Of a stretch of DNA of 64,000 nt, positions 13,268 through 36,703 are shown one piece after another (the stretch's first letter is position 1; every line of letters begins with the position of its first letter). The DNA lies in contig CACXXP010000002.1 in assembly GCA_902771695.1 (NCBI GenBank), forward strand, positions 1,958-65,957, given 5' to 3'. The DNA comes from an uncultured Pseudomonadota bacterium. Lineage in GTDB: Bacteria; Pseudomonadota; Alphaproteobacteria; Rs-D84. The notes beneath the pieces are model-generated. The model worked only from the letters and a program-made list of their open reading frames with translations. It was not told where the DNA came from and ran no database searches. The translations under genes were made by a program, and so were the position numbers.

Positions 13268-13284
13268 TATTCCGAAATGTATAG

Positions 13285-13312
13285 TTGCCTTTTTAAAATT
13301 TGGGTTTATAAT
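13285..13312 (+). promoter_or_regulatory. sigma70-type promoter for the DUF1015 gene
   Basis: TTGCCT (13285-13290), 16 nt spacer, TATAAT (13307-13312). AAGGAG RBS precedes ATG 13340. Confidence 0.55.
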
Positions 13313-13339
13313 CCATTGGCTTAAACATAAGGAGATATT

Positions 13340-18836: not shown

Positions 18837-18900
18837 ACACAAACTCTCTCTGATATTCTGCATTTTAACACAGAACATTTACATGTGTCTAGCAAAAAAT

Positions 18901-19285: not shown

Positions 19286-20101
19286 TTATCTGCCTCGGTC
19301 ATTTGGATTGCCACCAAACTGATATGTTTGCCGTTCCACAGTTACATCACCATTTGGATTTGTGGTTTTTTTGGTTGTGATTGTCGCACGACCACTCATA
19401 TGAACGTGAATATGTGTGTGGCATTCCTCGGATTCTTGTTGACACGGACAAGGATCTTGTGGTTTGTCATTCTGTGGTTTATCATCCTGTGGTTTCGTCG
19501 GCTTGGTCGGCTTTGTTGGTTTTGTCGGCTTGGTCGGCTTGGTCGGCGTTGTAGTTGTTGGTGTCGTCGGTTCAGTCACAACATTGTTATTGTTACCATT
19601 AACCGTGGTGTTACCATTGTTGCTGCTGTTGTTATTTGTATTAGAATTATTATTGGTACTGGTATTATTCACTGTTTGGCTATTGTTATTCTGCTGACTA
19701 TTATTTTGTGTATTGCTAACATTTGAATTACCAGAATTGGTTACATTTCCAACGTTGTTGATGATTACACCATTATTGATTATTGTCATACAATCCGTGC
19801 ATGTTGTATCAGGCAACACAATTGTGTCATGCACAACCACTGTGTCACATGGCATTGTGATAGTATCATAAAAATATACTGTATCACATGGCAATTGTAA
19901 TGTATCTGGACTGACTGAATCCGCAGTATCCATTGCGAAATGGACATCAGCCATCACTGGCAATCTTTCCACTGTCGGTTTTGCCTGATAATCATAAACT
20001 GCACGACCCGGTTGTTCTTGTTTTTGACCACACGCGGTCAAGAACTTTGCAATTATAACCATTTCTAGTATATGTATTATGTTTTTCTTACGCATTTTCA
20101 A
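19286..20101 (-). CDS. lipoprotein with Asn-rich low-complexity region and PTKP repeats
   Basis: Lipobox AKFLTAC-GQ. Asn-rich run NNSQQNNNSQTVNNTSTNNNSNTNNNSSNNGN, then (PTK)n PTKPTKPTKPTKPTKP and DKPQN/DKPQD repeats. Confidence 0.65.
   Translation of the reverse strand: MKMRKKNIIHILEMVIIAKFLTACGQKQEQPGRAVYDYQAKPTVERLPVMADVHFAMDTADSVSPDTLQLPCDTVYFYDTITMPCDTVVVHDTIVLPDTTCTDCMTIINNGVIINNVGNVTNSGNSNVSNTQNNSQQNNNSQTVNNTSTNNNSNTNNNSSNNGNTTVNGNNNNVVTEPTTPTTTTPTKPTKPTKPTKPTKPTKPQDDKPQNDKPQDPCPCQQESEECHTHIHVHMSGRATITTKKTTNPNGDVTVERQTYQFGGNPNDRGR
19460..19550 (-). repeat. in-frame short tandem repeats (12-bp and 15-bp units)
   Basis: Reiterated GGCTTGGTCGGC / GGTTTTGTCGGC and TGTGGTTT(G/A)TCAT(T/C)C units. 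They encode the PTKP and DKPQx repeats. Confidence 0.8.
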
Positions 20102-20223: not shown

Positions 20224-21087
20224 ATGAAGTATTTTAATCTGTTTTTCATCGCTGTGTTTGGCGCGTTTACTGCATTCTGCGGTCATGCCGCTGTAAGCAA
20301 ATGTTCCAAAACAAATCTTGCGCGATGCCTTGATTCTGCATGCGCCATCAACGCCAGTATGAATCCTGCGGCGCGTTGCCAATATTGCGGGACATCTGGG
20401 GCCGGCGAACCACCATCGCAAAAAGGATTAAACAACATTACCGCCGGTCAATCCACCAAATATGCACTCAGCGAAAAAGATTTGAAAGTTGCGCCATCTG
20501 ATCCCGGAAAACGCTATATTTGGGCCACAACCGAATGTATTAAAAAATTACCGGATTGTACCCCAGACGATGCATCGGCCGCATATGATAAATTGATTGA
20601 ACAATCTTGTAAAGCCGCCGGTGTTACAATGCAAATCCAAAATGCCGCAACCAAACTTAATACAAAAAAGACGAAAACAAGTTGCAATAACACATTTACG
20701 ACGTGTATGGATAAAAAATGTGGCACGGCATTTGAATTGTGCGAAACGGATTCTGATTTTGATCGTGTCATTGCCGAATGTGGTGCCGATGCCACGGGGT
20801 GTGATGATTATATTGCCGAATTCAAAAAGACATTTGGAAATGCGCGCACGAATGCAATGAACAATCGTGAAAATCTTGTTAAAACAATCGCAGAAAATTA
20901 TCAAAAAAGTCGCAAAACAAAATTGGAAAACATACAAAAAGGTTGCACCAAAGGAACCGCTGCGGATGCATGCATTGAAAGTGTATGTGCAAACAACATG
21001 CGTGGTAAATGCAAAGAATCAAAAGAAAAATCAATGGCAAAACAATTATGCAAATTCTATGACAATGCATGTACGGTGTTGAAATAA
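20224..21087 (+). CDS. secreted cysteine-module protein (287 aa), unknown family
   Basis: Signal peptide MKYFNLFFIAVFGAFTAFCGHA. About 24 Cys, including CNNTFTTCMDKKCGTAFELC and CSKTNLARCLDSAC. Confidence 0.65.
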   Translation: MKYFNLFFIAVFGAFTAFCGHAAVSKCSKTNLARCLDSACAINASMNPAARCQYCGTSGAGEPPSQKGLNNITAGQSTKYALSEKDLKVAPSDPGKRYIWATTECIKKLPDCTPDDASAAYDKLIEQSCKAAGVTMQIQNAATKLNTKKTKTSCNNTFTTCMDKKCGTAFELCETDSDFDRVIAECGADATGCDDYIAEFKKTFGNARTNAMNNRENLVKTIAENYQKSRKTKLENIQKGCTKGTAADACIESVCANNMRGKCKESKEKSMAKQLCKFYDNACTVLK

Positions 21088-21088
21088 A

Positions 21089-23638
21089 ATGAGACAGAAG
21101 ATTGGAATTTTTTCTAAGATTTGTGTAATGGCAACAGCCGCGTGCATGTGCTTTGCTTTTAATTCTTATGCCGCCACAAAAACGAAACAAACGAAATCAA
21201 ACACATCAACGAAACCTGTTGTCGTTAACAACAAAACATCACAATTTGACGAAGTATTTTCTGATTTAGGCGCGAAAACCGCCGATACAACCAGTGCTGA
21301 TTTGGCGGAACGCGTTCGTCAGCAACGCGCATTATTGGATGGGAAAGGCAACAGTCAATCTGTGGCCAAGGCATCCGGCGTCACAGGTGCAAACGCATGT
21401 GATGCAACATTGCGTAAATGTATGGCAGAAAAATGCGGTTCTGATTTTACAAAATGTGCCAAAGACAGCACTGCTATTTGGGGCGACAAAATGGATTCTT
21501 GCCGTCGTAAAACCAAATGCACCGGACATGAATATTCACTGCTGGCCCCGGAAATATTGGCAGACCGTGATTTCAACGAACGCATGTCATATTACAATTC
21601 TGTGATTTCATGCGGGAACAGATACAATTCATGTATCTTTGCTGAATGTGGCATAATGTTGGAAAAATGTTTATCTAAATCCGATGGCGACCGTGCCGTT
21701 TCCAAATGCGCACCTGTTGCAAAAGATTGCAAAGAACAAGATAGTGGTATGGCCGCACGTGTAATGTCGGTATTTGGCGATTTACGAACCGTTGCCATGG
21801 CCCAGGCCGAAAAGGACGAAAAACGTTTGTATGAACTGCGTGATTTAATGCGTAACCAATGCAATCGATTGGGTGCAGTGTTTGATGAACGCACATTGGA
21901 TTGTGTTTATACGGTTAACTTCTTTGCCGGTGATAATACCAGTACCCCAACATCATCCAAAAAATTGTATGCCGGCGACAGTTTCCAATGCAATGCAAAC
22001 TGGTTTGGCATAGACGTCACAACATTCAAAGAAAACGCATATCGTCGGACACGTGCACAAACATCAGCATCATCTGCAATGATGGGGGCGGGTGTCGGTG
22101 TCGCCGCAGGATTACTGTCATCGGGTGCAATCGATCGCGCATTAGACACCCAAAGGGCAGAAAAAGCCGCAAAAGAAGAATGCCAAAATTCTGGATATAC
22201 CTGGGAAAAAGGTACGTGCAATAAAGATAAACCATACACAGGCAACAAGAATAATAATGACGACGACGATGAAGAAACAGGTGAAGAAGTCACCGACGAT
22301 AGTGGCAATAACGACCAAAGTGGGAACGAGAACCAGCAGAATTTAGAACAAGAATGCACTGAAAAAGGCCGTAAATATGCCAATGGTTCCTGCACCACAG
22401 AATGTCTTGCCGAAGGGTACGAATATGATTCAACCAGCCAAACCTGTAACGAACATTCAAATGCAAACGAACTGTTCCTTTATTGCAGTGGATTTGAAGA
22501 AGAATCTACATGTGATACCGACAAATGCGAATGGAACGATAATTGTGTTCCAAAATCTGCACCAAGACAAAATATTTCAACTGATGAAACCCCAACCCAA
22601 ACCCCTGTTGCCCCAGGCAAGAATGTCAACATATCTCTGCAGGTAACAGACAAAACCCAAACAGTCAAACTTATGGCAGAAATAAAATGTGGTACAAAAA
22701 CCGCAAAAACGCCGGCACTTGGAAAGAAAATCACCTTGAAAAATATTGCCAGCACCGAAACCTGTGTTATATCGGCCACAGATTGTGAATCAAAGAAATT
22801 CCAGGCAGGTGTTTTAGCACAAGGTTCACAGAAGTTTTTGGTATGTCCAAAAATCGACGAATGTATCACCAATGGCGGTAAATGGAAAAACAACAAATGT
22901 TCGGGGGCGAATGTCACGGCGACAAATTCATGTGAACTGACACCACAGGCAATATGTGGTCAAGGTATCCAACGCGGCAAATGCGAATGGAACGGCACAA
23001 AGTGCGTAGAAAAAAAAAATAGTTCCGTAACACCACCAAATGGAAATTCTAATCGACAAAATGGTTCTGCGAACGGCGGCGGTGCACAATCATGTAATTT
23101 AGATTTTACAAGTTTGGCAAAGAATTTAAAATTGGATACCCCAATATCATTGTCAAACTGTAACGAAAATACCGCTCAATACATAACTGGCACGCGCGCA
23201 TTAGAAAAAGCCTGCTATAACTACCAGGGTATATTAGTATTACGCAGCGACAATACAACGGTATCCGAATACCGTGTAGAACCAAAAATAGAAAATAATT
23301 CTTTTGTATGCAAATTCAAAAACTGGTGGGATGTTAAAGATCCCAATGGTAGATTCAAAACACCAGATGAATGGGATACAGAAACACACCCCAGTGACAC
23401 AGAATGTGCAACTACATGCAATCAAATAAAATCTGTTACAGATCCGACCAAAAACATACTTGCTTTCCCTGGAGAAAAACAATGTTTAAAAGTGTGCACA
23501 TCAAACATTCAAACGGCCTGCGAAGGACTTATTGGTAAAAAAGATGGTGACGCACCTATTACGAAAATATATGTTCAATATCACGTAAACAATCAAAATA
23601 ACTTGATGTATCATTGTCAATATGGTTATCAGCGATAG
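21089..23638 (+). CDS. secreted cysteine-module / glycine-zipper protein (849 aa), unknown family
   Basis: Start lies 1 nt after the upstream stop (TAA-A-ATG). Signal peptide present. Modules CDATLRKCMAEKCGSDFTKC and CGNRYNSCIFAECGIMLEKC. Hydrophobic MMGAGVGVAAGLLSSGAI, an acidic NNNDDDDEETGEE linker, and C-terminal KCEWNDNC and KCEWNGTKC. Confidence 0.65.
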   Translation: MRQKIGIFSKICVMATAACMCFAFNSYAATKTKQTKSNTSTKPVVVNNKTSQFDEVFSDLGAKTADTTSADLAERVRQQRALLDGKGNSQSVAKASGVTGANACDATLRKCMAEKCGSDFTKCAKDSTAIWGDKMDSCRRKTKCTGHEYSLLAPEILADRDFNERMSYYNSVISCGNRYNSCIFAECGIMLEKCLSKSDGDRAVSKCAPVAKDCKEQDSGMAARVMSVFGDLRTVAMAQAEKDEKRLYELRDLMRNQCNRLGAVFDERTLDCVYTVNFFAGDNTSTPTSSKKLYAGDSFQCNANWFGIDVTTFKENAYRRTRAQTSASSAMMGAGVGVAAGLLSSGAIDRALDTQRAEKAAKEECQNSGYTWEKGTCNKDKPYTGNKNNNDDDDEETGEEVTDDSGNNDQSGNENQQNLEQECTEKGRKYANGSCTTECLAEGYEYDSTSQTCNEHSNANELFLYCSGFEEESTCDTDKCEWNDNCVPKSAPRQNISTDETPTQTPVAPGKNVNISLQVTDKTQTVKLMAEIKCGTKTAKTPALGKKITLKNIASTETCVISATDCESKKFQAGVLAQGSQKFLVCPKIDECITNGGKWKNNKCSGANVTATNSCELTPQAICGQGIQRGKCEWNGTKCVEKKNSSVTPPNGNSNRQNGSANGGGAQSCNLDFTSLAKNLKLDTPISLSNCNENTAQYITGTRALEKACYNYQGILVLRSDNTTVSEYRVEPKIENNSFVCKFKNWWDVKDPNGRFKTPDEWDTETHPSDTECATTCNQIKSVTDPTKNILAFPGEKQCLKVCTSNIQTACEGLIGKKDGDAPITKIYVQYHVNNQNNLMYHCQYGYQR

Positions 23639-23723
23639 TTTTATCTAAAAAATTATCAGTTTGACAAACTGAAATAAGTTCTTATAATTGCACCTCGGTG
23701 TAAAAACAACGGGGGTATATTTT

Positions 23724-24593
23724 ATGAATTTCTGTCCAAAAATTGCACGTGAAAGTTATGATATACATGGCAACTATGTCCCGGCATGGCGTAAATATGT
23801 ACGGACACACCCAGGTGCAAAAATTAACAATTCAGCAGACATTAGCAATTTTGGTCCTTATTCACCCGCATACCCAACAACAAACGAAGATTGGCGTTTC
23901 GCAATGCAGAAATTACAACCCCAAAATAAATCTATCCTTACCGTTGCAGGCAGCGGGGATCAGGCCATCGCATTTGCTATTTCGGGTGCAAAAGATATCG
24001 ATACTTTTGACAAGACGGTTTTCGCAAACATAATCATGCAAATGAAATTTTCTGCGATTCCGACATTGGATTATACCCAATACAAAGATTTTGTTAATGG
24101 AATTGTCAATGCGAAATCTGTACGCGATATTCCGTCATTCGATAAAATTGCACCAAAATGCCCACGTGATATAATCACAACAACCAAACAAATGCACGGT
24201 TGCAAGATATTTCATAATGGATGCGGGGTACGACATGAATATATGCCAACCGAATCGGAATACAATATTGCCCAACAAGTAATCAGTACAAAACAGGTGA
24301 ATTTTATTTGGACAGATTTGCAAGACCTGCACACCCATTTGGACAAATCATACGACATAATATACCTGTCTAATATTTTTGAAGATTTTTACCAAGGTAG
24401 TAAAATTACCGCGACACTTAATAATCTGCGTCCATTTCTAAACATAAACGGTCAAATAATGCTTTATACATCATGGGTTCACACGCAAACATCTGAAAAC
24501 ATTGTTGCGGCGGCAAGTAAATGCGAATGGGCAAAAATAGAATCACGCGAAAAACAAAATGCGGTCATGCTGTTGTTAACCCGCGTGCATTAA
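23724..24593 (+). CDS. DUF3419/BtaA-like SAM-dependent methyltransferase-fold protein (tentative)
   Basis: Start moved to ATG 23724 (GGGGGT RBS). YPTTNEDWRFAMQKL...ILTVAGSGDQAIAFAISGAKDIDTFD resembles the WED ... SAG(C/D)N ... D Rossmann N-terminus of that family. Confidence 0.4.
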   Translation: MNFCPKIARESYDIHGNYVPAWRKYVRTHPGAKINNSADISNFGPYSPAYPTTNEDWRFAMQKLQPQNKSILTVAGSGDQAIAFAISGAKDIDTFDKTVFANIIMQMKFSAIPTLDYTQYKDFVNGIVNAKSVRDIPSFDKIAPKCPRDIITTTKQMHGCKIFHNGCGVRHEYMPTESEYNIAQQVISTKQVNFIWTDLQDLHTHLDKSYDIIYLSNIFEDFYQGSKITATLNNLRPFLNINGQIMLYTSWVHTQTSENIVAAASKCEWAKIESREKQNAVMLLLTRVH

Positions 24594-25639
24594 GATTTCG
24601 GCTGAATCAGTTTTAATAATTCATCTTGATTGGTGACAACGGTAACACCTGCTTGTTTCCACTCATTTGACACTTTATCAAAATCCATAATATTTGTTTC
24701 ACCCAGATATAATATTGGTGTCACACCTTTTTCTTGGGCGATCTTTTTCAATTCTACAATTGGTGACGGTTTTTGACGACCCGATGCAAACCAATCTAAT
24801 TCATCTGCGACCCAGAAATCACTATCACTGTGGACCGCAACCGCACAATTATTAACAACAATCAAATTACCAACGATTTCTGTGCTGTGCCCTGCCCCCG
24901 ATATAATATCACGCAGGTTCGTGTATTCTGGGACATTTGTGTCATTATCTGGGGTGTCATCATCGTCCGTATCATCACCAAAGTTTATATCAGAAAACAC
25001 TGGGACATCAAAATCTTGGGCGGGCGGCGTATCAAAATCAGTTGGAATTGGAAATTCGGGATTTTCAGAAGTATTCTCTGGTGCTGATTTTTGGGTTTCA
25101 ACCGGGGCCGAATTACCCGATGGTGCCACCACTGGCACAGGTTCCGCCGGCACATCTTTACTGGTTGTTGCAATCGGACTGTTATCAAATTTAGATGGAC
25201 GATTAAACACAGACATTTGACGAACGCCATAATTTTTATGCGCCCGCATAAATACTTCACGCATTTCGGCCGGCACACCCTTTGGCAAATCCACCAAGAC
25301 CTCTTGTTCAGTCACAACGGGCTTTGGTTTTTCTGGTTCCGGTTTCTTTGGTTTTTCGGCCAAACACTTTGGCAGGGGAATCTTAACCGGCATTTCCTGA
25401 GTCCGACATACAAATACTGTTGTCGCAATATACAATGGAACCGCCGCCAAAATCATTATTCCAAAAACAAAACCTGGAAATCCATGCAATTCCACATGCA
25501 ACATCTTTAACCAGTGTGCCGCCGAAAACATATTGAAATTGAACAGACCACGCAAAATCAACCACATTACAAAAATGTAGCACGCCGTCCACACTAATAC
25601 ATGACGCCATTTTTTATAAAAATCCTTTGCATCCGCCAC
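24590..25639 (-). CDS. membrane protein (349 aa) with Pro/Lys-rich and acidic linkers and an unknown C-terminal domain
   Basis: N-terminal helices VLVWTACYIFVMWLILRGLF and FVFGIMILAAVPLYIATTVFV. Then KPKKPEPEKPKP and DDTDDDDTPDND linkers. Its stop overlaps the convergent gene's stop in TTAA. Confidence 0.5.
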   Translation of the reverse strand: MADAKDFYKKWRHVLVWTACYIFVMWLILRGLFNFNMFSAAHWLKMLHVELHGFPGFVFGIMILAAVPLYIATTVFVCRTQEMPVKIPLPKCLAEKPKKPEPEKPKPVVTEQEVLVDLPKGVPAEMREVFMRAHKNYGVRQMSVFNRPSKFDNSPIATTSKDVPAEPVPVVAPSGNSAPVETQKSAPENTSENPEFPIPTDFDTPPAQDFDVPVFSDINFGDDTDDDDTPDNDTNVPEYTNLRDIISGAGHSTEIVGNLIVVNNCAVAVHSDSDFWVADELDWFASGRQKPSPIVELKKIAQEKGVTPILYLGETNIMDFDKVSNEWKQAGVTVVTNQDELLKLIQPKS

Positions 25640-25798
25640 TTTTATAATCCATTTATCACTAAATAATTATAGACATTTTTTATAATCTGTCAACCACAAG
25701 ATAAAAATTATTCATATATTCAATATTTTTTGTAAAAAAAACTTTTTTATATGCCTTTTCTGTGATATACTACTAGGGATAGAAAAGGAGGGTTTTTC

Positions 25799-28138
25799 AT
25801 GCAAAAACTGCTGAAAACATTGGGAAAAAGTATAATTTGTTTGTCTGTTATTGCAGTGACCGACGCATGTTTTGGTGCCGACAGTCCGCGTGGTGTGGCA
25901 AATAATAATCGTGGTCGTGGTGCCGTCAGCACCGCCCGTATGCCATCTATTCCAGTATTACCGGTAAGTGCCGTTGGACATATCACAACCAGCAGCAATA
26001 CCGTTAATCCAACGCCTACGCCGGAACCAGAACCTGGTCCGGGACCAACACCTCCGCCGGGGCCAACGCCTCCGCCGGGACCAACCCCACCTCCTCCTCC
26101 AGGCCCACAGCCAGATCCAGACACCCCTGTCACCCCAGGATGTCCAGACGGTGGCGTTGAAAATTCCGCGTACACGGTTGACAACTGTATGACCGAAGTT
26201 CTGGGCTGTGTAAACGGTGGTGCGTTACCAAATGGTATAAATTCACTGTTTAACCAAGATTTGCGTGAATCTATCATAAACGGCATGAGTTTATGCTTGA
26301 CCCAGGTTGAAAAGTGTATATCAACCGTTCGTAAGAATTGCCAATATGTCTATGCATCGGCATCTGACGTGTGGTTGGATTTTAACGCACGCAAGGTTCA
26401 ACCTGAATATTACAGATTTGTGCTTGCACAAACTGGTTTGACACCAACCCAGGCAGAAAACACATGCCTGTTGCTGGATCGTAACACGTATGGTGCATCA
26501 TTTAATGCGATTTCAAGCAGTGATACAACAACATCTGAATATGCCCAAAACGTTGGTGCATACAATGGTGCATTAAACAATTCATTGCGCAAAGCAAATC
26601 CGCTTGGTGCAACAGTAAACAGTTCTGGTATTGACGGCAAACGTGGATACTATGCCCGTTGGGATGCCGAAAAGGCAGAATGCTTGTTACGTGTTGCGGC
26701 ATACAACAAGGATACACCAATTAAAAACAGTTGGTTATTCGGCATTGTTGGAAATGATGACCCGGCCGAAGTATGGCAAGCCACTGGTTCAACATTTACC
26801 TGTAACAAAGATTTGTTCGGATTTTCGTTGATGAACAAAACCAAAACCACCGCAGTGGTTGGGATTGGTGGCGGAACCTTGGTTGGTGCCGGTGTCGGTG
26901 CATTGGCCGGACACGGTGACCGCAAATTTGATTGTTCCGTAAAATCTATGCGTGACGAATTGTTAAAGCAGATTCAGAACAATCAAAAAACTGGTGTAAT
27001 TAACCAATTCTTGGAAACCCAGATTGCAACAACTGATAAAACCATGACCCAGGCCCAGTGCAATGAAATCATGGAATTGTACGACACGTGGCAAATGGGT
27101 AAAGATGCGGTCAAGACCTGTGAAACCAAAGAACAGGTATTGGTAGAAATAGAGGCCGACTTTGATATTGACGTGGTCACCACTGCAATTCGCAATAATT
27201 GCAAGACGGGCGCATGCATATCAGATGTCCAAATGGACCAGATTGTTGCGGCAATACAAACACCGTTCCAACAATTGGCAAACGACTATGCGGCACAAAT
27301 CCAAGATGCGTTGAAATATTGTACTTTCCGTGCATTGAATTTGGCACGTCGTGATGGCACCGGCGTATATTGCCAAGGCCATAACAACGAATGTATCAGC
27401 CGTAAAGAATTCCAGGCCGAATTGTCCGCATTAACCAAAGTGTTCAATTCGTTGGATATCTTGAATGGCCAAGAATCAAATCGTCTGAAAACCACATTGA
27501 TTGGTGCCGGCATTGGTGCGGCGGCCGGTGGTACAGCGACGGCGATTACGGCATTTGTTGAACGCAATAACATTAACTGTCGTGTGGCTGATGGTTTGGC
27601 CAAGGTCGGATTTGGCAAATCGCATACAATCGACCGTTTGCGTGATTTCTATGTCAAATGGGCATTGAATTTGCCAGAAAACGTTGCACCGACCGCGGTT
27701 GTCACAAATTGTGAAAACTGGGGATTGACATGCGCACTGTATTCCGACTTGAATGAATGTCGTGCGGCACAATTCAATTACCGTCCGGGCAACTTGGCAA
27801 GTACAACATTGATTCAAAACGCATGTACCCCATCGGGCAGCGCATGTATTGCGAATGTTCCTGTGGCACAGGCAAATGGTGAATGCTTGTTAAGTCCAAA
27901 TCCAAACGATAATGATGAAGAAGCACCAAACGTAGCAACATGTGTAGAATGGAATGATCAGTGTGAAAAAATTACCAGTCCAGATGCCTGTGCCAAGGCC
28001 AAGGTAGTTTATACACCAAGTTCTATGTTGGTTGCCAATGCATGCAAGTATCAAGAAAGAATACATACATGCCGCGCAAGTGCACAAAAGGTAAAGGTGT
28101 ATATGGACATAAACAATTGTCCAATGCGCCTTGAATAA
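25799..28138 (+). CDS. secreted cysteine-module / glycine-zipper protein (779 aa), unknown family
   Basis: AAGGAGGG RBS. Signal peptide MQKLLKTLGKSIICLSVIAVTDA. Pro-rich PTPEPEPGPGPTPPPGPTPPPGPTPPPPPGP. Modules CMTEVLGC and CLTQVEKCISTVRKNC. Zippers VVGIGGGTLVGAGVGALAG and LIGAGIGAAAGGTATAITAF. C-terminal CVEWNDQC. Confidence 0.65.
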   Translation: MQKLLKTLGKSIICLSVIAVTDACFGADSPRGVANNNRGRGAVSTARMPSIPVLPVSAVGHITTSSNTVNPTPTPEPEPGPGPTPPPGPTPPPGPTPPPPPGPQPDPDTPVTPGCPDGGVENSAYTVDNCMTEVLGCVNGGALPNGINSLFNQDLRESIINGMSLCLTQVEKCISTVRKNCQYVYASASDVWLDFNARKVQPEYYRFVLAQTGLTPTQAENTCLLLDRNTYGASFNAISSSDTTTSEYAQNVGAYNGALNNSLRKANPLGATVNSSGIDGKRGYYARWDAEKAECLLRVAAYNKDTPIKNSWLFGIVGNDDPAEVWQATGSTFTCNKDLFGFSLMNKTKTTAVVGIGGGTLVGAGVGALAGHGDRKFDCSVKSMRDELLKQIQNNQKTGVINQFLETQIATTDKTMTQAQCNEIMELYDTWQMGKDAVKTCETKEQVLVEIEADFDIDVVTTAIRNNCKTGACISDVQMDQIVAAIQTPFQQLANDYAAQIQDALKYCTFRALNLARRDGTGVYCQGHNNECISRKEFQAELSALTKVFNSLDILNGQESNRLKTTLIGAGIGAAAGGTATAITAFVERNNINCRVADGLAKVGFGKSHTIDRLRDFYVKWALNLPENVAPTAVVTNCENWGLTCALYSDLNECRAAQFNYRPGNLASTTLIQNACTPSGSACIANVPVAQANGECLLSPNPNDNDEEAPNVATCVEWNDQCEKITSPDACAKAKVVYTPSSMLVANACKYQERIHTCRASAQKVKVYMDINNCPMRLE

Positions 28139-28159
28139 AAAAGTTTCGCATGGTGTCCC

Positions 28160-28189
28160 AACGCCGTCCGTCCTGGGCGGCGTTTTTTA
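28160..28189 (+). terminator. intrinsic terminator after the 779-aa gene
   Basis: Stem ACGCCGTCC / GGGCGGCGT (one G-U pair) with a 5-nt loop, followed by TTTTTT. Confidence 0.7.
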
Positions 28190-28259
28190 TTTCATCATGC
28201 CGATGCAAATCGTTATCCCATCATACACAAATTCATAAAGTACTTTTTTATTTTTATTC

Positions 28260-28288
28260 TTGGTGAACAGCATTTTTTATGATAAAAT
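28260..28288 (+). promoter_or_regulatory. sigma70-type promoter for the 1001-aa gene
   Basis: TTGGTG (28260-28265), 17 nt spacer, TAAAAT (28283-28288) preceded by TGA. The core TTTTTATGATAAAATAT is identical to the one at 36276-36292. Confidence 0.55.
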
Positions 28289-28313
28289 ATAGGGGATAAT
28301 AAGGGGAATTCCA

Positions 28314-31300
28314 TTGAAAAATATATTGCTGATACTGGCATTTTTAATTGGTGGTTTTGATGCGCACGCGGCGCGTGTTGGTGGCACAAATTTGCGCGGT
28401 TCCGCAGGTTCTTCGGCGGAAATGCAACCAGGTACAACCAGTGCCAGATCAGCCGTACGCGGTTCTTCGGTCAAAGGTGTGGCCGGACGCAGCAATTTAT
28501 CCAATACATCATCATCGTCCACGGCGCCAAAAAATCTTGGTTCACGCGGACGCAGTGCAACTGCCCAAACTACACCAACCGTCAAGGCGCGCGCGGGCAC
28601 AAAACAAAGCGTTATCAGTTCCGGAACCAAGGTCGCAACCGCGGCACAAAATACTGTTGTTGATGAAGAATGCTGGAATAAATTCAGTGGGTGTATGGAT
28701 TCTTTCTGTATGTTGGATAATGCGACCGGTGGCCGTTGTATCTGCAGTGACAAGAACGCCGAATACGATTCGATTTTGGCTGAAATTCAAGAATTGGATA
28801 ATCAATCATACCAAATGGCGACCGTTGGTGTTGAACGTATTGAAATGGGCGACGATGCCGATGCAGTTATGGCAAGAACCAAGGCGATTACAAACAGTAT
28901 TGAAAAAGACGCCGAAAAAGCAAAATCAAAACGCCAATCGCTTGATTTATCCGCATGGAATACTGACAGTGGCATAGATTTTGACGAAGATGTAGAAGAT
29001 ATTTTCTCGCTGTCATCTGATGGTGTTTCGGTTGCAAACAAAAAAGGTGACGCACTGTATCGTGCATCTGCAAAACTTTGCACCGCCCAGTTGAAAGAAT
29101 GCAGCGCACAACACAAAATGATGGAATTGATGTATCAACAACGCATTCGTTCTGATTGCACGGCATATGAAAACAGTTTGCGTCAACAACGCACACAAAG
29201 CGCACAAAAATTGGCGGCGGCACAAAGTGCGATGCGCGAAGCGGCATTGGAGCAATATCGTAATGCAAACAAATACGATTTGGGACAATGCACCGTTGAA
29301 TTCAAAAAGTGTATGCAAACAACCGGCGGATGCGGCGATGACTTTACGGGTTGCGTGACACAACAAACAACACGTGAAACATTGCAGGGCGGCAAAATCA
29401 AAATGAAAAAGATTAAGGGTGCATCAACCACCATTGAAATTGCCGCATGGACATACGATGCATTGGAATCTAAAAAGCCATTGTGTATGACGGTTACGCA
29501 ACAATGCGTTAATGTTAAAGACCAGGTTTGGGATACATTCCTGCGCGAAGTTGCACCGCAAGTGAAATCTGCGGAATTGGCGGCGGAATCTGATTTGCGT
29601 ATGTCGTGTATTTCAACAATTTCCGACTGTTTCCAAAAGGCATGTAAAGAAAATATGGATCCAAATAATCCAGACGGTTCGTACGATATGTGTTTAACAC
29701 GTCCGGAAACATTACGTTCTTTCTGTAAAGTGCAAATAGACCCATGCGAAGCCGCGGAACCAAAAATCATGGATTACGTTCGTGCACGTTTGGCATCTAT
29801 GCGTGTTGATTCATGTACCAAAGAATTCAAGGAATGTTTGCAATCCGAAGACCGTTGTGGTGCCGATTATTCACAATGCGTTGGTTTGGATACCGATACA
29901 ATTGTTCGTATGTGCCCGGCCGAAAAGTTGGTTGGTTGCCAATATGACGATGCAGGGTCGGACGGTTCCGCCCGAACCAATAAAAGTGCCCAGGTTAAAA
30001 CCGATGACGAAATATACGATGAATTGGCACGCATCGCCCAGGGTATATTCTTGAACATAGATAACAACATGTTAACCACATGTCAAAAGGCCGCCGATGC
30101 CGCCATGATAAAGGTCTGCGGCAGCACCGAAGATTGTGATGATTTGGCAATTGACGAAACTGCTGGCACACGCAGTTTCAAATACCAAGTATGCCAGTTT
30201 GATGGTTTAAGTGATGGAAAATCTGCAGGTGTTGCCAGTGCAGATGGTGCAGCCGGGATGCCAAAATGGACGGGACAATGTTATGATTCATTGGATGCAA
30301 TTTCCAATGCGCAATTACAACAAGACGGTCAAAAAGGTTGGGCCGGGAAATTATCTGGCTTAGTATATTGGGGCGAAATTGCATATGATGTTGAGAAGAA
30401 TTCGTTCACCACAGAAAAAGAGTATATGAACTCCCTGGCTAAACTCGGGTATGAACTGACCGAAGATGAAAAACAAATCGTTCACGAACGTGTATTTGGA
30501 ACAGAAATTCGTGCAATGACACGTGCAGTTGAGCAAGCCATATCGGCAATTGAATCAGACCCCAAGGTTCAATATTGTATGTCGGGGCGCACTTTCCAAG
30601 GCATGCGTGATAAAGATGGTCAATTGGCAAAATTGGGTACACAAAATAAAGATGAGGCCCGTTTTCCGAAATTAACGGAACAAATGCGACGTATTATTGC
30701 TACATCGGCATTAAGAAATGCACGTAATAATTATATGAAAAAATATGATGATGAAATTATGCGTATGATGAAAGATCAAGTCAAAGCGGCAGAACGTCTG
30801 GATGAACAAGCTTCTAAGGAATTAGCTATTAAACAAGCCGAACAATCATGTGCCGATTGGGCAAAGAATACCACATTGCCTGCATCACAGGCGCCAAAGG
30901 CGAGCAACGTTGGTCGTTGGATTGCTGTTGGGGTAATCGCTGCCGCTGCGATTGTTGCATCCATATTTACTTTTGGAGCAGCCGCTGCTGGTGGTGCCGT
31001 AGCCATTGCATCCATTGTTGGAACAAGTATAACTGCCACCACAATATCAGCGGGTACCATAGCCGCAGGTGTCGCAGTTGCCGCGGCGGGAACTGCGGCA
31101 GGACTGGCCGCAACGACTAAACCTGTGGGGCAATCCAATATTGATCAATGGAACTATAAAGAAAGCGTGTCCACAATATTTAATTATCAAACAGGCGAAT
31201 GTTTCAAGACAAAAGTAACCCAGAATTGCAAAAAAATCAAAAAGAATTATTGCAAAGAATGGGACGAAGAAGTTGAAGAAACAACCAGTATCAATCTGTT

Positions 31301-31319
31301 GGATACTAATAAAGAATAA
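28314..31319 (+). CDS. secreted cysteine-module protein (1001 aa) with C-terminal triple glycine-zipper hydrophobic region, unknown family
   Basis: TTG start with an AAGGGG RBS. Signal peptide MKNILLILAFLIGGFDAHA. Modules CWNKFSGCMDSFC, CTVEFKKCMQTTGGCGDDFTGC, CISTISDCFQKAC and CTKEFKECLQSEDRCGADYSQC. Hydrophobic run WIAVGVIAAAAIVASIFTFGAAAAGGAVAIASIVG...AAGVAVAAAGTAAGLAA, then CKEWDEE. Confidence 0.65.
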   Translation: MKNILLILAFLIGGFDAHAARVGGTNLRGSAGSSAEMQPGTTSARSAVRGSSVKGVAGRSNLSNTSSSSTAPKNLGSRGRSATAQTTPTVKARAGTKQSVISSGTKVATAAQNTVVDEECWNKFSGCMDSFCMLDNATGGRCICSDKNAEYDSILAEIQELDNQSYQMATVGVERIEMGDDADAVMARTKAITNSIEKDAEKAKSKRQSLDLSAWNTDSGIDFDEDVEDIFSLSSDGVSVANKKGDALYRASAKLCTAQLKECSAQHKMMELMYQQRIRSDCTAYENSLRQQRTQSAQKLAAAQSAMREAALEQYRNANKYDLGQCTVEFKKCMQTTGGCGDDFTGCVTQQTTRETLQGGKIKMKKIKGASTTIEIAAWTYDALESKKPLCMTVTQQCVNVKDQVWDTFLREVAPQVKSAELAAESDLRMSCISTISDCFQKACKENMDPNNPDGSYDMCLTRPETLRSFCKVQIDPCEAAEPKIMDYVRARLASMRVDSCTKEFKECLQSEDRCGADYSQCVGLDTDTIVRMCPAEKLVGCQYDDAGSDGSARTNKSAQVKTDDEIYDELARIAQGIFLNIDNNMLTTCQKAADAAMIKVCGSTEDCDDLAIDETAGTRSFKYQVCQFDGLSDGKSAGVASADGAAGMPKWTGQCYDSLDAISNAQLQQDGQKGWAGKLSGLVYWGEIAYDVEKNSFTTEKEYMNSLAKLGYELTEDEKQIVHERVFGTEIRAMTRAVEQAISAIESDPKVQYCMSGRTFQGMRDKDGQLAKLGTQNKDEARFPKLTEQMRRIIATSALRNARNNYMKKYDDEIMRMMKDQVKAAERLDEQASKELAIKQAEQSCADWAKNTTLPASQAPKASNVGRWIAVGVIAAAAIVASIFTFGAAAAGGAVAIASIVGTSITATTISAGTIAAGVAVAAAGTAAGLAATTKPVGQSNIDQWNYKESVSTIFNYQTGECFKTKVTQNCKKIKKNYCKEWDEEVEETTSINLLDTNKE

Positions 31320-31337
31320 TGTATAAAGATAATATAA

Positions 31338-31363
31338 CCCCGCCCACAAATGTGGGCGGGGTA
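31338..31363 (+). terminator. hairpin terminator after the 1001-aa gene
   Basis: Perfect 11-bp stem ACCCCGCCCAC / GTGGGCGGGGT with an AAAT loop. The U-tract is weak. Confidence 0.55.
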
Positions 31364-31424
31364 ATTATAATCTTATTATAGCGAGTGATGTTCGAAACTC
31401 TTTATATCAACGCAATATAATCGC

Positions 31425-31488
31425 AAAAAAACGGTTGCGATTGCAACCGTTTTTACTAATCACTTACACTAACCACTATCACTAATGA
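31425..31488 (-). terminator. 3-prime cassette copy b after rplQ
   Basis: Gene-sense read: TAA TCATTAGTGATAGTGGTTAGTGTAAGTGATTAGT AAAAACGGTTGC-AATC-GCAACCGTTTTTTT. The hairpin is identical to copy a. Confidence 0.8.
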
Positions 31489-32064
31489 TTATTTGCCTGT
31501 GGCACGGCGTTTAACCGCAACGGTCTTTTTTTCCGCTGTGGCCTTTTTGGCCGCCGGTTCTTTTGCTGTGGCTTTCGTGGCCGTTGGCTTAGCCGCCTTT
31601 GGCGCCTTGGTTGCTTTTTTATCTGCTGCTTCGGTTGCAACCGCTTCTTCGGCCTTGGCCGCGGCTACTTCGGCCTTGGGTGCCGCTTTCTTGGCATTAA
31701 CATCACGGTCAATAAATTCAATGATTGCCATTGGTGCCGCATCACCATAACGGAAACCCGCCTTCAGAACGCGTGTATAACCACCTGGGCGTTTTGCATA
31801 ACGTGGTCCCAATACAGTGAACAATTTTTTAACGGCCGCCGCGCTGGCATTGCCCAATTCAGACGCAACAAGGCGACGATTTGCAACGCTATCAACTTTG
31901 GCACGTGTAACCAATTTTTCTACGACACTGCGCAGATCTTTGGCCTTTGGCAACGTTGTTTTGATTTGTTCTTTTTCAATTAAATTCTTCGCCAGGCCTA
32001 TAAACAACGCCTTGCGAGCATTTGTATCGCGATTAAATGTGCGACCTGCTTTTTGGTGTCTCAT
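31489..32064 (-). CDS. rplQ: 50S ribosomal protein L17 with Ala/Lys-rich C-terminal extension
   Basis: [21 protein letters not shown]... follows rpoA. The last ~70 aa are [16 protein letters not shown]...[31 protein letters not shown]. Confidence 0.95.
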
Positions 32065-33490: not shown

Positions 33491-34246
33491 TTAATATCTT
33501 GAACCACGTGCCTTGGCTTCTTCTCTGTCATAATTGGTCTTGGCCTGGCGGACTTTAACCTGTAGGTATTGAACGCACTTTTTGATGGCATTCTTATTGG
33601 CATATTCCGCGCTTTCGCAATCGTCCTTATCTACATTAGCAAACTGTTTACCTTCGGCATCGGCATACGCTTTCATTATAGCTATATCATTCACCAACTG
33701 TTTACGCGCATTTACCGTATCTTTATCTGCCGCCTGCGAAATCTTGTTAAGGTTACGCGTAAAGCAGTCGTAAACGTCCGCCTGGGATGTTACAGCATAA
33801 CAATCTTCTGCATTGGCCAGGCCAGCATTGTTGGACGAAGAACCACCCGATGATGAAGACGATGAAGAAGATGAACCGCCGGTCATAACTTCTATCTTGC
33901 TTTTTAAAACAGATTTTTCTAATTGTGTCTTGAACCGTTTAACCATCGCATTCAAGACATCATATTGCTGTTTCATTTGCTGGGCAATAACGGTTGATTT
34001 CAGGGCGATAATATTGTTCATCTCGGAAATTTGTCCGGAATCAGATGGATTTTTCAGCATACCATAATTATACGCGTGCGTACTGCACAATGCATACGCC
34101 GGCGAAAAATATTGGCAATCATTGTAATCATCATCGTCATATCCACCCGAATATGCATACGCACCAACGGACATGCCGCACAGCACCACCACCGCACAAA
34201 CGCGGATTAAATTTTTGGTACTAAAAATTTTCATTTTTGTTGTCAT
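33491..34246 (-). CDS. secreted protein (251 aa), partner of the 669-aa cysteine-module protein
   Basis: Signal peptide region MKIFSTKNLIRVCAVVVLCGMSVGAYA, poly-Ser GGSSSSSSSSSGGSSS, and paired Cys (DCYAVTSQADVYDC, DDCESAEYANKNAIKKC). 3-nt gap from the upstream gene. Confidence 0.55.
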   Translation of the reverse strand: MTTKMKIFSTKNLIRVCAVVVLCGMSVGAYAYSGGYDDDDYNDCQYFSPAYALCSTHAYNYGMLKNPSDSGQISEMNNIIALKSTVIAQQMKQQYDVLNAMVKRFKTQLEKSVLKSKIEVMTGGSSSSSSSSSGGSSSNNAGLANAEDCYAVTSQADVYDCFTRNLNKISQAADKDTVNARKQLVNDIAIMKAYADAEGKQFANVDKDDCESAEYANKNAIKKCVQYLQVKVRQAKTNYDREEAKARGSRY

Positions 34247-34249
34247 TTA

Positions 34250-36259
34250 CTAAAAGAAATTTCCACATGTTTCTCTTGCATCCGCTTCTGACCCAAAATA
34301 TTCTGTCATACCTTTGATACAATCTGCTTTATTACTAAATCGCGATAAATCATCGGGATTGTTCGCCATATTACCATTACTCAACACATTACCAACACTA
34401 AACTTTTGGGCAATTTTGTCTATTGTGTTTACAGACTGAGCCGACCGTGCTGGCAATACATTAATAGGAACCGCACCAACAGGGATACACTTATTCTGAT
34501 ACCATGCACAATTATCATCTTTATTACACGGGTCAGAAGTTTTATATTCTGCACACTTCTCACGATATTGTGGTGCATCCGCAAGAGCCCCCCCCTTGTA
34601 CGTGCACTTACCAGAAACCCACTGACAAACTGGGTCCAAGCCACAATTTACAACCCCTTTACCTGCACAATTACCGATCTTATTCTCTATTACCACAGTT
34701 TCAACATCTTCGCCATCACGACCCATTGCCTTTTCATCGGCAAAACAGTAATCTTTACGTTTACCCAATTTCTTGGTTCGGGCGGCGGTTTCCAATTTCT
34801 TTAAACGTTGGCTGCTGGTATCGGGGACCGCACAGAAATTTGCACCACAATCTTTCAAATCATAACCATCAGCATTCTTGCTCTTACGACATGATGGGAA
34901 AGAATCTTGGTTAATTAAATTACGCAATGTTTCAATATCCAATGTTGCATTTTTCTTCATACCACGGAATAACGAAACATTCATAACCACGTCGGACGCA
35001 CATGCAACCTGGGTCGAACCAGTCATACCAGAATTCGCATCAACCCATTCGCGTTGAACTTCTTCCCCATCGTTTATTATTCCGACCAAACGGCAATGCG
35101 GTTGATTTTTTGATACTTTACCGTCACTGGTAGTTATAACGCGATAGTAACAATTCTTCTTGTCACCATAACATTCGCAACAACCTTCTGTATCACTGCA
35201 CGTTCCAGCCTTACCACTGGGACAAGTATTACACATATACTTACCCCACATGTTGCATGACCCAGATAACAACATAATAACGTCACTGACATCGATACCA
35301 ACCGTCATTGCCAATATCAATGCATCATACATATTTTCAACAACAGATTCATACGGGTCAAAGAATTCATTTGCCAGGTCTTTGAATTTCTTCACACGTT
35401 TTGGCCCCGTACAATTATTCACACCCGCATCACAACCCGCATATTCCAACACGCGATCCAATGTTTCTTTCATTTTCTTCATTTCGGTGACGGCATCTTC
35501 CACGGCGGTTTCAATTTGTCCGCCAATTTGTTCACGCACCAAAATATCAGGATTTATCCCATTTTTCGCCGCAATCTTTTCGGCAACCCCCATGTCTTCT
35601 AAACCTTCAACATCCGGTCCCAATTCAGATGTCACAATCGCGGCATTTGCGCGACTTTCTTCCAATGCACTCTGAATCTGGGCGGCCTGGGATTCATTTT
35701 GTGCCGCCATTTGCGCCTGCATATTGGCCATAGATTCTGCCATTTGTTGTTGCATTGCCGCCATTTGTGATTGCATTTGTTGCATCTGGGCGTTGCTCTG
35801 TTCGGCGGCCGCAGATGCCGCGGCGGCTTGGGCCTGGGCTTGGGCCTGGGCAATTGCAACCGCATTTTGTTGTTCTTGAACCTTGGCATTAGATTTCGCA
35901 ACCAATTGCCCCGTCAAAGAATCTATCAAGGCATCACCATGCTTTTTACATGTGGCGTTGGAATTCACGCATCCCGCAACAATCGGACGCGCAACCGATG
36001 CATCATTACACCCAGATGAACATTTGGGCGTTGCACAACGCAGAATTATGGCCTCGCAATTACCAAAATTCGCCTCGGCCACGTTGGCGGTCATTCCCCC
36101 ACGGGCGTTCATCATACTGTTCCATTTGTTATTATTCGTGGCACCCGTGCCATTATACGCGGTCAGGTTAGAACCCGCCGTTGTCGCAACATTGGCCACC
36201 GCCGGCGTTAGAAACGCGGCGCACAATACACCACACAAGACCTTTAATGGAATATACAT
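34250..36259 (-). CDS. secreted cysteine-module protein (669 aa), same family as the 20.2-31.3 kb genes
   Basis: Start set to ATG 36259 (MYIPLKVLCGVLCAAFLTPAVA). Module CEAIILRCATPKCSSGC, a Gln/Ala coiled coil (AQAQAQAQAAAA...MQQMQSQMAAMQQQMAESMANMQAQMAAQ), and C-terminal CQWVSGKC and CAWYQNKC. Confidence 0.65.
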   Translation of the reverse strand: MYIPLKVLCGVLCAAFLTPAVANVATTAGSNLTAYNGTGATNNNKWNSMMNARGGMTANVAEANFGNCEAIILRCATPKCSSGCNDASVARPIVAGCVNSNATCKKHGDALIDSLTGQLVAKSNAKVQEQQNAVAIAQAQAQAQAAAASAAAEQSNAQMQQMQSQMAAMQQQMAESMANMQAQMAAQNESQAAQIQSALEESRANAAIVTSELGPDVEGLEDMGVAEKIAAKNGINPDILVREQIGGQIETAVEDAVTEMKKMKETLDRVLEYAGCDAGVNNCTGPKRVKKFKDLANEFFDPYESVVENMYDALILAMTVGIDVSDVIMLLSGSCNMWGKYMCNTCPSGKAGTCSDTEGCCECYGDKKNCYYRVITTSDGKVSKNQPHCRLVGIINDGEEVQREWVDANSGMTGSTQVACASDVVMNVSLFRGMKKNATLDIETLRNLINQDSFPSCRKSKNADGYDLKDCGANFCAVPDTSSQRLKKLETAARTKKLGKRKDYCFADEKAMGRDGEDVETVVIENKIGNCAGKGVVNCGLDPVCQWVSGKCTYKGGALADAPQYREKCAEYKTSDPCNKDDNCAWYQNKCIPVGAVPINVLPARSAQSVNTIDKIAQKFSVGNVLSNGNMANNPDDLSRFSNKADCIKGMTEYFGSEADARETCGNFF

Positions 36260-36275
36260 CTCTCTTCTTATCAAG

Positions 36276-36382: not shown

Positions 36383-36703
36383 TTATCCGTTGCAGCGGTT
36401 GCAATTGTTATTGCGAACCACGCGGCGTTCTGAATATGTGCCTGCTGGTTCATAAACCGTTACCGGACGATATACCTGGTAATGATCAATTACTTCGGTA
36501 TGTGTTTTAACACGAACTGGTTGTGCACAAGAATTGCATGGTGCAGAAACTGTGCGAGCCGGTGCAGCATAGTTAACAGCTGCTGTGTTATAACGAACGT
36601 GATTTGTGTATGTTTCTGTTTCGGTATAAACCCCACCATCAGATGCATTTGCACTGACCGCAACCATCGCAGCAAACAAACCAGACAAAATTGTTTTTTT
36701 CAT
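36383..36703 (-). CDS. small secreted protein with two CxxC pairs (106 aa)
   Basis: Signal peptide MKKTILSGLFAAMVAVSANA. Contains CNSC and CNRC. Confidence 0.55.
   Translation of the reverse strand: MKKTILSGLFAAMVAVSANASDGGVYTETETYTNHVRYNTAAVNYAAPARTVSAPCNSCAQPVRVKTHTEVIDHYQVYRPVTVYEPAGTYSERRVVRNNNCNRCNG

Follow-up and report, generated by a model that had tools for sequence, protein, structure and literature searches.

Families of cysteine-rich proteins with Sec-type signals, invariant cores and hypervariable ends form a syntenic gene cluster in Candidatus Enterousia

What are the long, cysteine-rich proteins encoded at positions 20224–31319 of the 64-kb stretch of contig CACXXP010000002.1 analysed here (the window), and what could they do for the bacterium that carries them? 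The host is Candidatus Enterousia (order Rs-D84, Alphaproteobacteria), which comprises uncultured bacteria of the gut and rumen. Genomes of the Rs-D84 lineage are smaller than 1 Mb and encode many hypothetical membrane proteins; most biosynthesis (that of amino acids, nucleotides and lipids) is absent, as are standard transporters for sugars, amino acids and peptides, and a partner has been proposed as the source of metabolites (PMC12306168). The lineage is probably partner-dependent and retains peptidoglycan and rod-shape genes, and Ca. Enterousia is widespread in the guts of humans, ruminants, pigs, horses and birds (PMC12306168). We regard the host organism as a putative reduced-genome obligate symbiont. 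The locus is found to encode a number of new protein families restricted to this lineage, among them a new helical module with four cysteines, in a cluster that is core, syntenic and very strongly constrained across the genus. As to its role, we give about even chances to a lineage-specific set of Sec-exported, mainly α-helical envelope or surface proteins, stabilised by disulfides, whose variable parts contact a partner or host; we infer a function only at the level of an envelope or surface set.

A sequence-only reading had described four open reading frames (ORFs) of 287, 849, 779 and 1001 amino acids (p287, p849, p779 and p1001) that begin with Sec-type signal peptides and reuse one cysteine spacing, and all four lie where it placed them. 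The N-termini of the Cys-rich proteins are basic and hydrophobic and end in an A-x-A-like site, which by heuristic inspection, made by eye, reads as a Sec-type signal sequence. Cysteine accounts for 3.2–7.3% of the residues in the Cys-rich proteins (3.6–7.3% in the four main ones), as against 1.2–1.7% in p301 and p349, two neighbouring proteins that are not exported. Among the six Cys-rich proteins (the above four together with p251 and p674), a gap of six residues between neighbouring cysteines was observed 35 times, compared with 5.9 ± 2.4 in composition-preserving shuffles, and none of the 2000 shuffles reached 35. The triplet C-x6-C-x4-C occurs 6 times with 0.22 expected, and the four-cysteine form C-x6-C-x4-6-C-x6-C occurs 5 times with 0.02 expected. 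The cysteine pattern is more than chance.

The cysteines are also conserved in orthologues, as had been set as a check on the proposed spacing. Conservation was scored in window coordinates over the orthologues from 79 loci, with a cut-off of at least 0.9. In p287, 20 of 21 cysteines are conserved (at 0.95 or above, in 44 orthologues), the sole exception lying in the signal peptide. In p1001, 33 of 36 pass the cut-off, the other three being at 0.88–0.89, and all 36 are invariant in a 23-sequence alignment (A1). The corresponding numbers are 22/32 for p779, 22/34 for p674 and 15/48 for p849, where all 15 cysteines of residues 104–301 are conserved at 100% and the 30 of the C-terminal half are not conserved. 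By comparison, identity averaged over the alignment columns amounts to just 0.30–0.58, with mature cysteines at 95–100% set against a mean of 0.47–0.57, and in the internal controls p301 and p349 not a single cysteine is conserved (0/5 in p301). Such invariance of cysteines, set against low overall identity and the behaviour of the controls, is characteristic of structural disulfides formed in an oxidising compartment. CxxCH does not occur, CxxC occurs 0–2 times per protein and not at all in p849, p779 and p1001, and histidine makes up 0.3–0.6% of residues. These motif counts and the poverty in histidine led us to reject readings as heme-binding, thioredoxin-type or redox-enzyme or metal-cluster proteins; the cluster proteins resemble neither c-type cytochromes (CxxCH) nor thiol-disulfide oxidoreductases with a CxxC active site.

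These results raise two questions. First, do the proteins form one envelope-protein family that takes up a large share of the DNA, as had been proposed? Second, what are the parts for in which the cysteines are not conserved? With regard to the first question, the share is indeed considerable, since the six Cys-rich genes amount to 11.5 kb, or 18% of the 64-kb window, but the homology that can be demonstrated is narrower. It rests on a module of ~22 residues with the consensus C-x3-[FLY]-x2-C-[MIL]-x3-5-C-G-x2-[FY]-x2-C, which is present once in p287 (residues 154–173), twice in p849 (104–123 and 175–194) and twice in p1001 (326–347 and 501–522). Homology was tested with leave-one-family-out profile hidden Markov models (HMMs) and hhalign, with E-values referring to the 432 six-frame ORFs of the window. 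An HMM built from p287 only matches p1001 at 507–529 (E 3.2e-7) and p849 at 103–128 (E 1.2e-6), an HMM of p287 and p849 matches p1001 (E 7.3e-6), and an HMM of p1001 matches p849 (independent E-value, iE, 0.0015); hhalign aligns p287 with p849 at a probability of 88% and E 3e-6. p779 and p674, though equally rich in cysteine, were never matched by the module HMMs among the 432 ORFs, which indicates that the module link is no artefact of composition, and p674 has neither an hhalign nor an HMM link to the module proteins. Profile HMMs, which had been suggested as a way of checking the proposal, thus connect p287, p849 and p1001 and leave p779 and p674 unreached; homology through the four-cysteine module is demonstrable, at the level of sequence profiles, for these three only. 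p674 and p251 have just the style of spacing in common with the cluster proteins.

Other resemblances are more limited. p849 and p779 share an invariant [ST]-F-x-C-N-x3-F-G motif followed by a glycine zipper (hhalign 75%; HMM iE 0.018). HMMs of the N-terminal cysteine motifs (p287 22–60, p1001 112–150, p674 68–115 and p779 110–185) gave no matches across families, and the visually similar C..C[LM]DS.C strings of p287 and p1001 were set aside as a common motif for want of HMM support. A second mini-module, C-x-E-W-[ND], had been put forward for the C-terminal parts. The strings are present, and they are heterogeneous and minor: p849 has C-E-W-N, p779 has C-V-E-W-N and p1001 has C-K-E-W-D, with different contexts in p779 and p1001. 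A motif of the form C-x3-8-C-x-W-x3-5-C is found twice in p849 and twice in p674, and is kept in 3 of 27 p849 orthologues and 7 of 12 p674 orthologues.

AlphaFold2, run with family alignments, gives for p1001 a model made mostly of long helices of up to ~58 residues (148–205 and 261–318), with β-rich parts confined to a small one at 623–690 and the C-terminal domain (pLDDT 60, pTM 0.39). The p287 model is all-helical (pLDDT 70, rising to 85–90 at residues 150–287; pTM 0.33). In both models the first C-x6-C pair of the module sits in one continuous helix, the cysteine of the C-G pair lies in a loop, and the fourth cysteine starts the next helix, a placement that suggests a disulfide-stapled helix-loop-helix. 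The same predicted logic is known from the CHCH, twin Cx9C and twin Cx3C hairpins of the mitochondrial intermembrane space, in which pairs of cysteines on a helix face are disulfide-bonded to a second element during oxidative folding. The module would differ from these in its x6, x4-6, x6 spacing and in a second half that in the models begins in the C-G loop rather than as a full helix; the Enterousia proteins are moreover bacterial, giant and multi-modular, and no homology to the hairpins was detected in Pfam. Helical repeats in which cysteine pairs at a fixed spacing staple helix pairs also occur in Helicobacter Hcp (Sel1-like repeats, C-x7-C) and Legionella EnhC. Like those secreted or periplasmic bacterial proteins, the cluster proteins are α-helical by prediction and have cysteine pairs a fixed short distance apart. 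However, the spacing is x6, four cysteines fall within ~20–22 residues, the modules are irregularly placed without a regular ~36-residue repeat, and the proteins are much larger and carry predicted membrane segments. No match to Sel1 (PF08238) was obtained at E ≤1, nor any match to a fold in the Protein Data Bank (PDB).

That no named family would be recognised was borne out by every search made. Pfam and NCBIfam give no significant family for the Cys-rich proteins or p349, and the same holds for all 23 members of alignment A1; weak matches to DUF5693 and DUF2207_C were dismissed since they sit on a hydrophobic or low-complexity tail. Profile searches of PDB sequences with alignments A1 (p1001) and A2 (p287) were empty, and Foldseek returned no match at E <1 for the p1001 and p287 models against PDB, or for the p287 model against BFVD. 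An exhaustive HMMER search of 1.84 billion representative proteins with the p287 profile found just 64 relatives, all of p287 size or fragments, with no bridge to other lineages or families in that set. There are more than 1079 homologues of p1001, and the 168 homologues of p349 are every one unnamed and lineage-specific. The cluster is real, no artefact, and lies outside any catalogued family, and no description of these proteins was found in the literature on Enterousia and Rs-D84.

How far do the genes reach beyond this one contig? Gut and rumen metagenomes contain p287 in identical sequence, along with close relatives of p1001. A scan with one genome per GTDB species yielded 316 stretches with relatives of p1001, of which 79 loci, from ~80 genomes, were retrieved for the analyses of orthologues and gene order. 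These 79 come from ruminants, humans and birds, are labelled Candidatus Enterousia, "Alphaproteobacteria bacterium" or "uncultured Rickettsiales", and include one circular genome of 958,618 bp. One locus (CAVGNU010000007.1), labelled Bacteroides fragilis, carries an Enterousia-type p1001 gene with 46% identity, most likely through an error of binning or labelling. Relatives of p1001 are absent from the viral contigs of IMG/VR, and an origin from a prophage or mobile element was rejected on this ground and because the genes are core and syntenic.

p287 and p849, whose genes are separated by 1 bp in the window, are adjacent on the same strand with p287 upstream in 40 of 40 loci, and p349 stands next to p779 in divergent orientation in 57 of 58. 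The surroundings of p1001 were compared, out to 10 kb, in the 45 loci where its flanks extend for 9 kb or more in each direction. Near p1001, p779 and p349 are each found in 38 of these 45 loci, p849 in 37, p287 in 33 and p301 in 26. The order and orientation of the three units (p287–p849, p349/p779 and p1001) vary between species, yet the units stay close, and this conserved gene order suggests a functional set. It could be argued instead that these are independent secreted or periplasmic proteins, unrelated neighbours held together by slow change of gene order next to a very stable ribosomal-protein operon, which does adjoin the cluster, and that their cysteine spacing is a generic way of stabilising helices outside the cytoplasm. 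That homology can be demonstrated for just three of the six Cys-rich proteins is in keeping with this, as is the behaviour of p251 and p674, which are adjacent to each other in 11 of 11 loci and lie within 10 kb of p1001 in just 8 of 45; these two may well be independent of the rest. For the set as a whole we nevertheless think it quite doubtful, since p287–p849, p349/p779 and p1001 remain within ~12 kb in most species through many inversions and reorderings, and since p849 and p779 have both the pre-zipper motif and the zipper in common. A second alternative starts from the same counts. p349 in the inner membrane, together with p779, p1001 with its long coiled coils and C-terminal anchor, and p287/p849, might form a new envelope-spanning machine that takes up metabolites or macromolecules from a partner cell or serves secretion; the pairing of p349 with p779 is strict, p1001 stays near both, its predicted helices of ~58 residues would be able to bridge much of the periplasm, and the lineage is without standard sugar, amino acid and peptide transporters (PMC12306168). 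On the other hand, no ATPase, secretion-system component or channel-forming domain is found in or beside the cluster, either in the window or in the closely related strain locus introduced below; no similarity to solved secretion or transport machinery was found, and species differ in how the genes around the cluster are arranged. We consider such a machine improbable, and a weaker alternative than the structural lattice discussed later.

The second question concerns the parts outside the conserved domains. In p849, amino acids ~100–360, including the zipper at 325–348, are 55–86% identical block by block, whereas amino acids 361–849 are 3–15% identical with low occupancy, and orthologues range from 514 to 1079 aa in length. 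p779 is conserved at 100–380 and 560–700 and variable at 380–560 and 700–779, its second zipper block being the best conserved of all. In p1001, amino acids 100–540 are very conserved and parts of 540–860 are variable. A weak internal repeat (HMM iE 1e-3) of the conserved domain that follows the second zipper of p779 (aa 586–700) was also noticed at aa 711–751 (window 27554–28051 for the two together), and the variable C-terminus of p779 may have arisen by duplication of this domain.

How these ends change can be seen in a close strain, L083 (GCA_017543505.1), whose gene order is identical. The background dS is 0.01–0.1, with RpoA 99.7% and p287 99.0% identical. Against it, dS rises to 1.3–1.7 in p849 at aa 659–849 and to 0.7–1.6 in p1001 at aa 1–119 and 600–957; in p779 the identity at aa 659–779 falls to 38–75%, with a dS of 0.36 at 659–718 and residues 719–778 too diverged for an estimate. 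p301 (80% identity, dS 0.55) belongs to a recombined block as well, and p271 is likewise diverged. In most of the divergent blocks of p849 and p1001, dN/dS is 0.05–0.25, with higher values in p1001 1–119 (0.49–0.52), p779 659–718 (0.55) and p849 830–849 (0.94). Judged from these substitution patterns, the divergent blocks look like alleles imported by recombination rather than bursts of point mutation. At the edge of the cluster, L083 has an extra gene of 421 aa without a Pfam match (13046–14311, minus strand) between p1001 and rplQ, where the window has only a 170-bp spacer (~31320–31488), which indicates a strain-level insertion or deletion.

The boundary between conserved and variable parts coincides in places with hydrophobic segments. 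Gly/Ala-rich GxxxG-type stretches had been reported in the three large proteins and again at 7530–12079, and they are indeed present, in p849 at 325–348, in p779 at 350–371 and 565–585, and in p1001 at 865–935; similar segments recur in ORFs of 1206 and 316 aa, including those at 7530–12079 on the minus strand. In p849 and p779 the zipper blocks rank with the best conserved parts of the protein. The run in p1001 does not belong with them: it is poorly conserved, has a conserved first helix and an Ala/Gly/Thr tail of varying length, is a single helix in some orthologues, and contains no conserved zipper. The G-x-G-x-G-A-x-x-G-type segments of p779 and p849 recall the glycine-zipper outer-membrane lipoproteins (SlyB/Pcp, the Rickettsia 17-kDa antigen and YiaD; PF13488, PF13441 and PF05433). 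For p779, matches below threshold were obtained to PF13488 (E 0.016; 15.6 bits vs 25), PF13441 (E 0.023; 14.9 vs 28.9) and YiaD_Gzip_OmpA (NF053611; E 0.0034, below the curated cut-off), and p849 and p1001 match none of the glycine-zipper families in Pfam. Unlike the small lipoproteins, p779 and p849 carry the zipper in the middle of a Cys-rich protein of 780–850 aa, and their scores remain under the curated cut-offs. A lipobox (L-x-x-C) is absent from the Cys-rich cluster proteins, which have no cysteine at +1 after their A-x-A sites; only the neighbouring p271 has one (LTAC).

Together, the conserved cysteines, the signal sequences and the helical models speak for proteins that lie outside the cytoplasm and are stabilised by disulfides. 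Taken as a surface set, they would work as follows. Each large protein would have a core, unchanging throughout the genus, of helices with cysteine pairs at i/i+7, and the cores of p287, p849 and p1001 would hold in addition the common four-cysteine helix-loop-helix module. In p849 and p779 the short conserved zipper segments would attach the protein to the membrane or oligomerise it there, and p1001 would have an ordinary hydrophobic anchor in place of a zipper. The parts beyond the zipper or anchor, which vary between species and would be swapped by recombination between strains, would form the exposed face of the cell, and through this face the bacterium would make contact with a partner or host cell and vary that contact, or else avoid recognition by phage or immunity. 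Invariant cores and conserved zippers combined with hypervariable, recombining, cysteine-containing ends fit an exposed part under diversifying pressure, the source of which could be partner specificity, phage or immunity. The second of the two hypotheses suggested from the sequence, a host-contact adhesin or pore set, is consistent as a contact surface with the conserved core, the hypervariable ends and the mosaic recombination, and pore formation found no specific support. An outer membrane is likely in this host because a small β-barrel candidate (OMP_b-brl) at 54545–55318 scores 27.9 bits, just under the cut-off of 28.7, and peptidoglycan is probably present because YceG/MltG is encoded at 56234–57277.

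Several observations weigh against such a contact set. The hydropathy of the zippers is borderline (Kyte-Doolittle 1.56–1.72); instead of spanning the membrane as helices, they may dip into it as hairpins or serve oligomerisation in soluble form. An α-helical crossing of the outer membrane is unusual, and a crossing of the inner membrane would put the Cys-rich variable parts in the cytoplasm, a poor fit; it should be added that all the regions flanking the zippers carry conserved cysteines, which makes a cytoplasmic location unlikely for any of them. The models are of only moderate confidence, and no Dsb-type oxidoreductase was found within the 64-kb window. The dN/dS values, well below 1 in most divergent blocks, give no evidence of positive selection on point mutations; recombination alone is also seen at neutral loci, and p301 is divergent although it is probably cytoplasmic.

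An alternative that is compatible with the contact set assigns the proteins a mechanical role. By analogy, intermolecular disulfides could tie them into a rigid outer layer of the envelope, comparable to the cysteine-rich outer membrane complex (COMC) of Chlamydia, in which disulfides among OmcB, OmcA and MOMP serve envelope stability. Both are systems of Cys-rich, Sec-exported envelope proteins of a reduced-genome, host-dependent bacterium in which disulfides are possible. The invariant cysteines are odd in number in the p849 N-domain (15), the p779 N-domain (9) and p1001 (33 + 3), so that at least one per such domain would be unpaired and available for a lattice, although free thiols or metal ligands would account for the same counts; an invariant cysteine also stands in the F-x-C-N-x3-F-G motif that immediately precedes the zippers in p849 and p779, and the genes belong to the conserved core and keep their synteny. 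It is not hard to see, however, where the analogy ends. No relation in sequence or fold to OmcA, OmcB or MOMP was detected with Pfam, NCBIfam and Foldseek; in the first two, at E ≤1, the OmcB/Chlam_OMP6, OmcA and MOMP families are not matched, and what weak matches there are point to unrelated families. For the Enterousia proteins the prediction is a largely helical structure with C-x6-C periodicity, and they have large hypervariable recombining parts that a purely structural role leaves unexplained. A substitute for the cell wall is not obviously needed in a lineage with peptidoglycan and rod-shape genes (YceG in the window). Pmp-type repeats, which had been invoked in favour of the comparison, are not there, since GGA[ILV] occurs 0–1 times per protein and no large ORF of the window matches Chlam_PMP or an autotransporter family in Pfam. 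The host-associated setting holds, and we regard the lattice as rather unlikely.

For the contact set, a parallel in architecture is offered by the variant surface proteins (VSPs) of Giardia, which are variable Cys-rich surface proteins with CxxC spacing and a C-terminal anchor, encoded by a switching multigene family. p1001 shares with them a signal peptide, a large Cys-rich ectodomain, a C-terminal hydrophobic anchor with a short conserved tail, and strong partial diversification. In contrast, the Enterousia genes are single-copy, syntenic, core and bacterial, and p849, p779 and p1001 lack CxxC. A bolder form of the idea, which we hold to be distinctly unlikely, is a surface coat of an unknown kind, made of disulfide-stapled helical proteins anchored in the outer membrane by oligomerising glycine-zipper helices rather than a β-barrel, with recombining exposed domains that set the partner and so determine attachment and host range in Rs-D84.

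If the proteins do form a contact surface, they would be the first concrete handle on the lifestyle of Ca. Enterousia. They would offer targets for antibodies or for sorting coupled to fluorescence in situ hybridisation (FISH), the mosaic C-terminal parts would serve as strain-level markers of host specificity, and the new disulfide-stapled helical module would be a candidate for structural work. Should they merely be structural proteins of the periplasm, they would still be new families worth a Pfam entry, with modest wider interest. The features of the cluster and its immediate surroundings are listed in Table 1.

Table 1. Genes of the cluster and adjoining genes, with their main features (window coordinates; aa, residues of the respective protein)
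Gene	Position	Strand	Features
p271	19286..20101	-	Lipobox (…FLTAC); after it, low-complexity sequence rich in Asn/Thr and tandem PTK repeats; borders the cluster
p287	20224..21087	+	287 aa; small exported all-helical protein (predicted); 20 conserved mature Cys; one four-Cys module, C154-C161-C166-C173
p849	21089..23638	+	Signal sequence; conserved Cys-rich N-domain aa ~100–301; four-Cys modules 104–123 and 175–194; conserved F-x-C-N-x3-F-G motif and Gly zipper aa 298–348; hypervariable C-terminal half aa 361–849 (30 Cys) with both C-x-W-type mini-modules
p301	23688..24593	+	DUF3419/methyltransferase-fold protein, probably cytoplasmic; basis PF11899
p349	24590..25639	-	Lineage-specific membrane protein (by hydropathy): two N-terminal hydrophobic helices, Pro-rich linker, conserved C-terminal domain
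p779	25799..28138	+	Signal sequence, Pro-rich linker, conserved Cys-rich N-domain aa 115–335, Gly zipper 1 350–371, variable middle 380–560, Gly zipper 2 565–585, conserved domain 586–700, variable C-terminus 701–779
p1001	28314..31319	+	Signal sequence; basic Ser/Thr/Ala-rich disordered region aa 20–115; highly conserved helical Cys-rich core aa 116–600; four-Cys modules 326–347 and 501–522; variable region 600–860; hydrophobic anchor and Ala/Gly tail 865–935; small β-rich C-terminal domain with 3 invariant Cys and W946/W983
p251	33491..34246	-	Small exported protein; 6 conserved Cys; partner of p674
p674	34250..36274	-	Exported Cys-rich protein; C-x6-C spacing 6 times; two C-x-W mini-modules
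p106	36383..36703	-	End of a second block (p251, p674, p106) beyond rplQ and rpoA

The DUF3419-like gene that had been placed in the middle of the locus is there, p301 matching PF11899 in Pfam with 43.2 bits against a cut-off of 28.2 (E 3.8e-11). The TTG annotated as its start probably lies 12 codons too far upstream, because the orthologues are 289 aa long. p271 looks like another variable surface lipoprotein, its identity to the strain L083 being only 75% while housekeeping genes exceed 98%.

Elsewhere in the window, an exported protein of 1259 aa with ankyrin repeats (15099–18878, minus strand; PF13637, E 5e-5) is encoded, which by tblastn lies near the cluster in 38 loci; its repeats are a eukaryote-like domain typical of symbionts that interact with a host. 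The plus-strand gene at 4814–6193 encodes a protein in which an HD domain is joined to an ART-PolyVal domain (ADP-ribosyltransferase of polyvalent proteins; score below cut-off). Another plus-strand gene, at 12185–13267, encodes a member of the choloylglycine hydrolase family (CBAH, bile-salt hydrolase; E 2.8e-61), which is worth noting in a gut bacterium of minimal metabolism. Finally, ribosomal protein L17, encoded at 31489–32064 on the minus strand, is 191 aa long, well over the usual bacterial length, with a long Ala/Lys-rich C-terminal extension.

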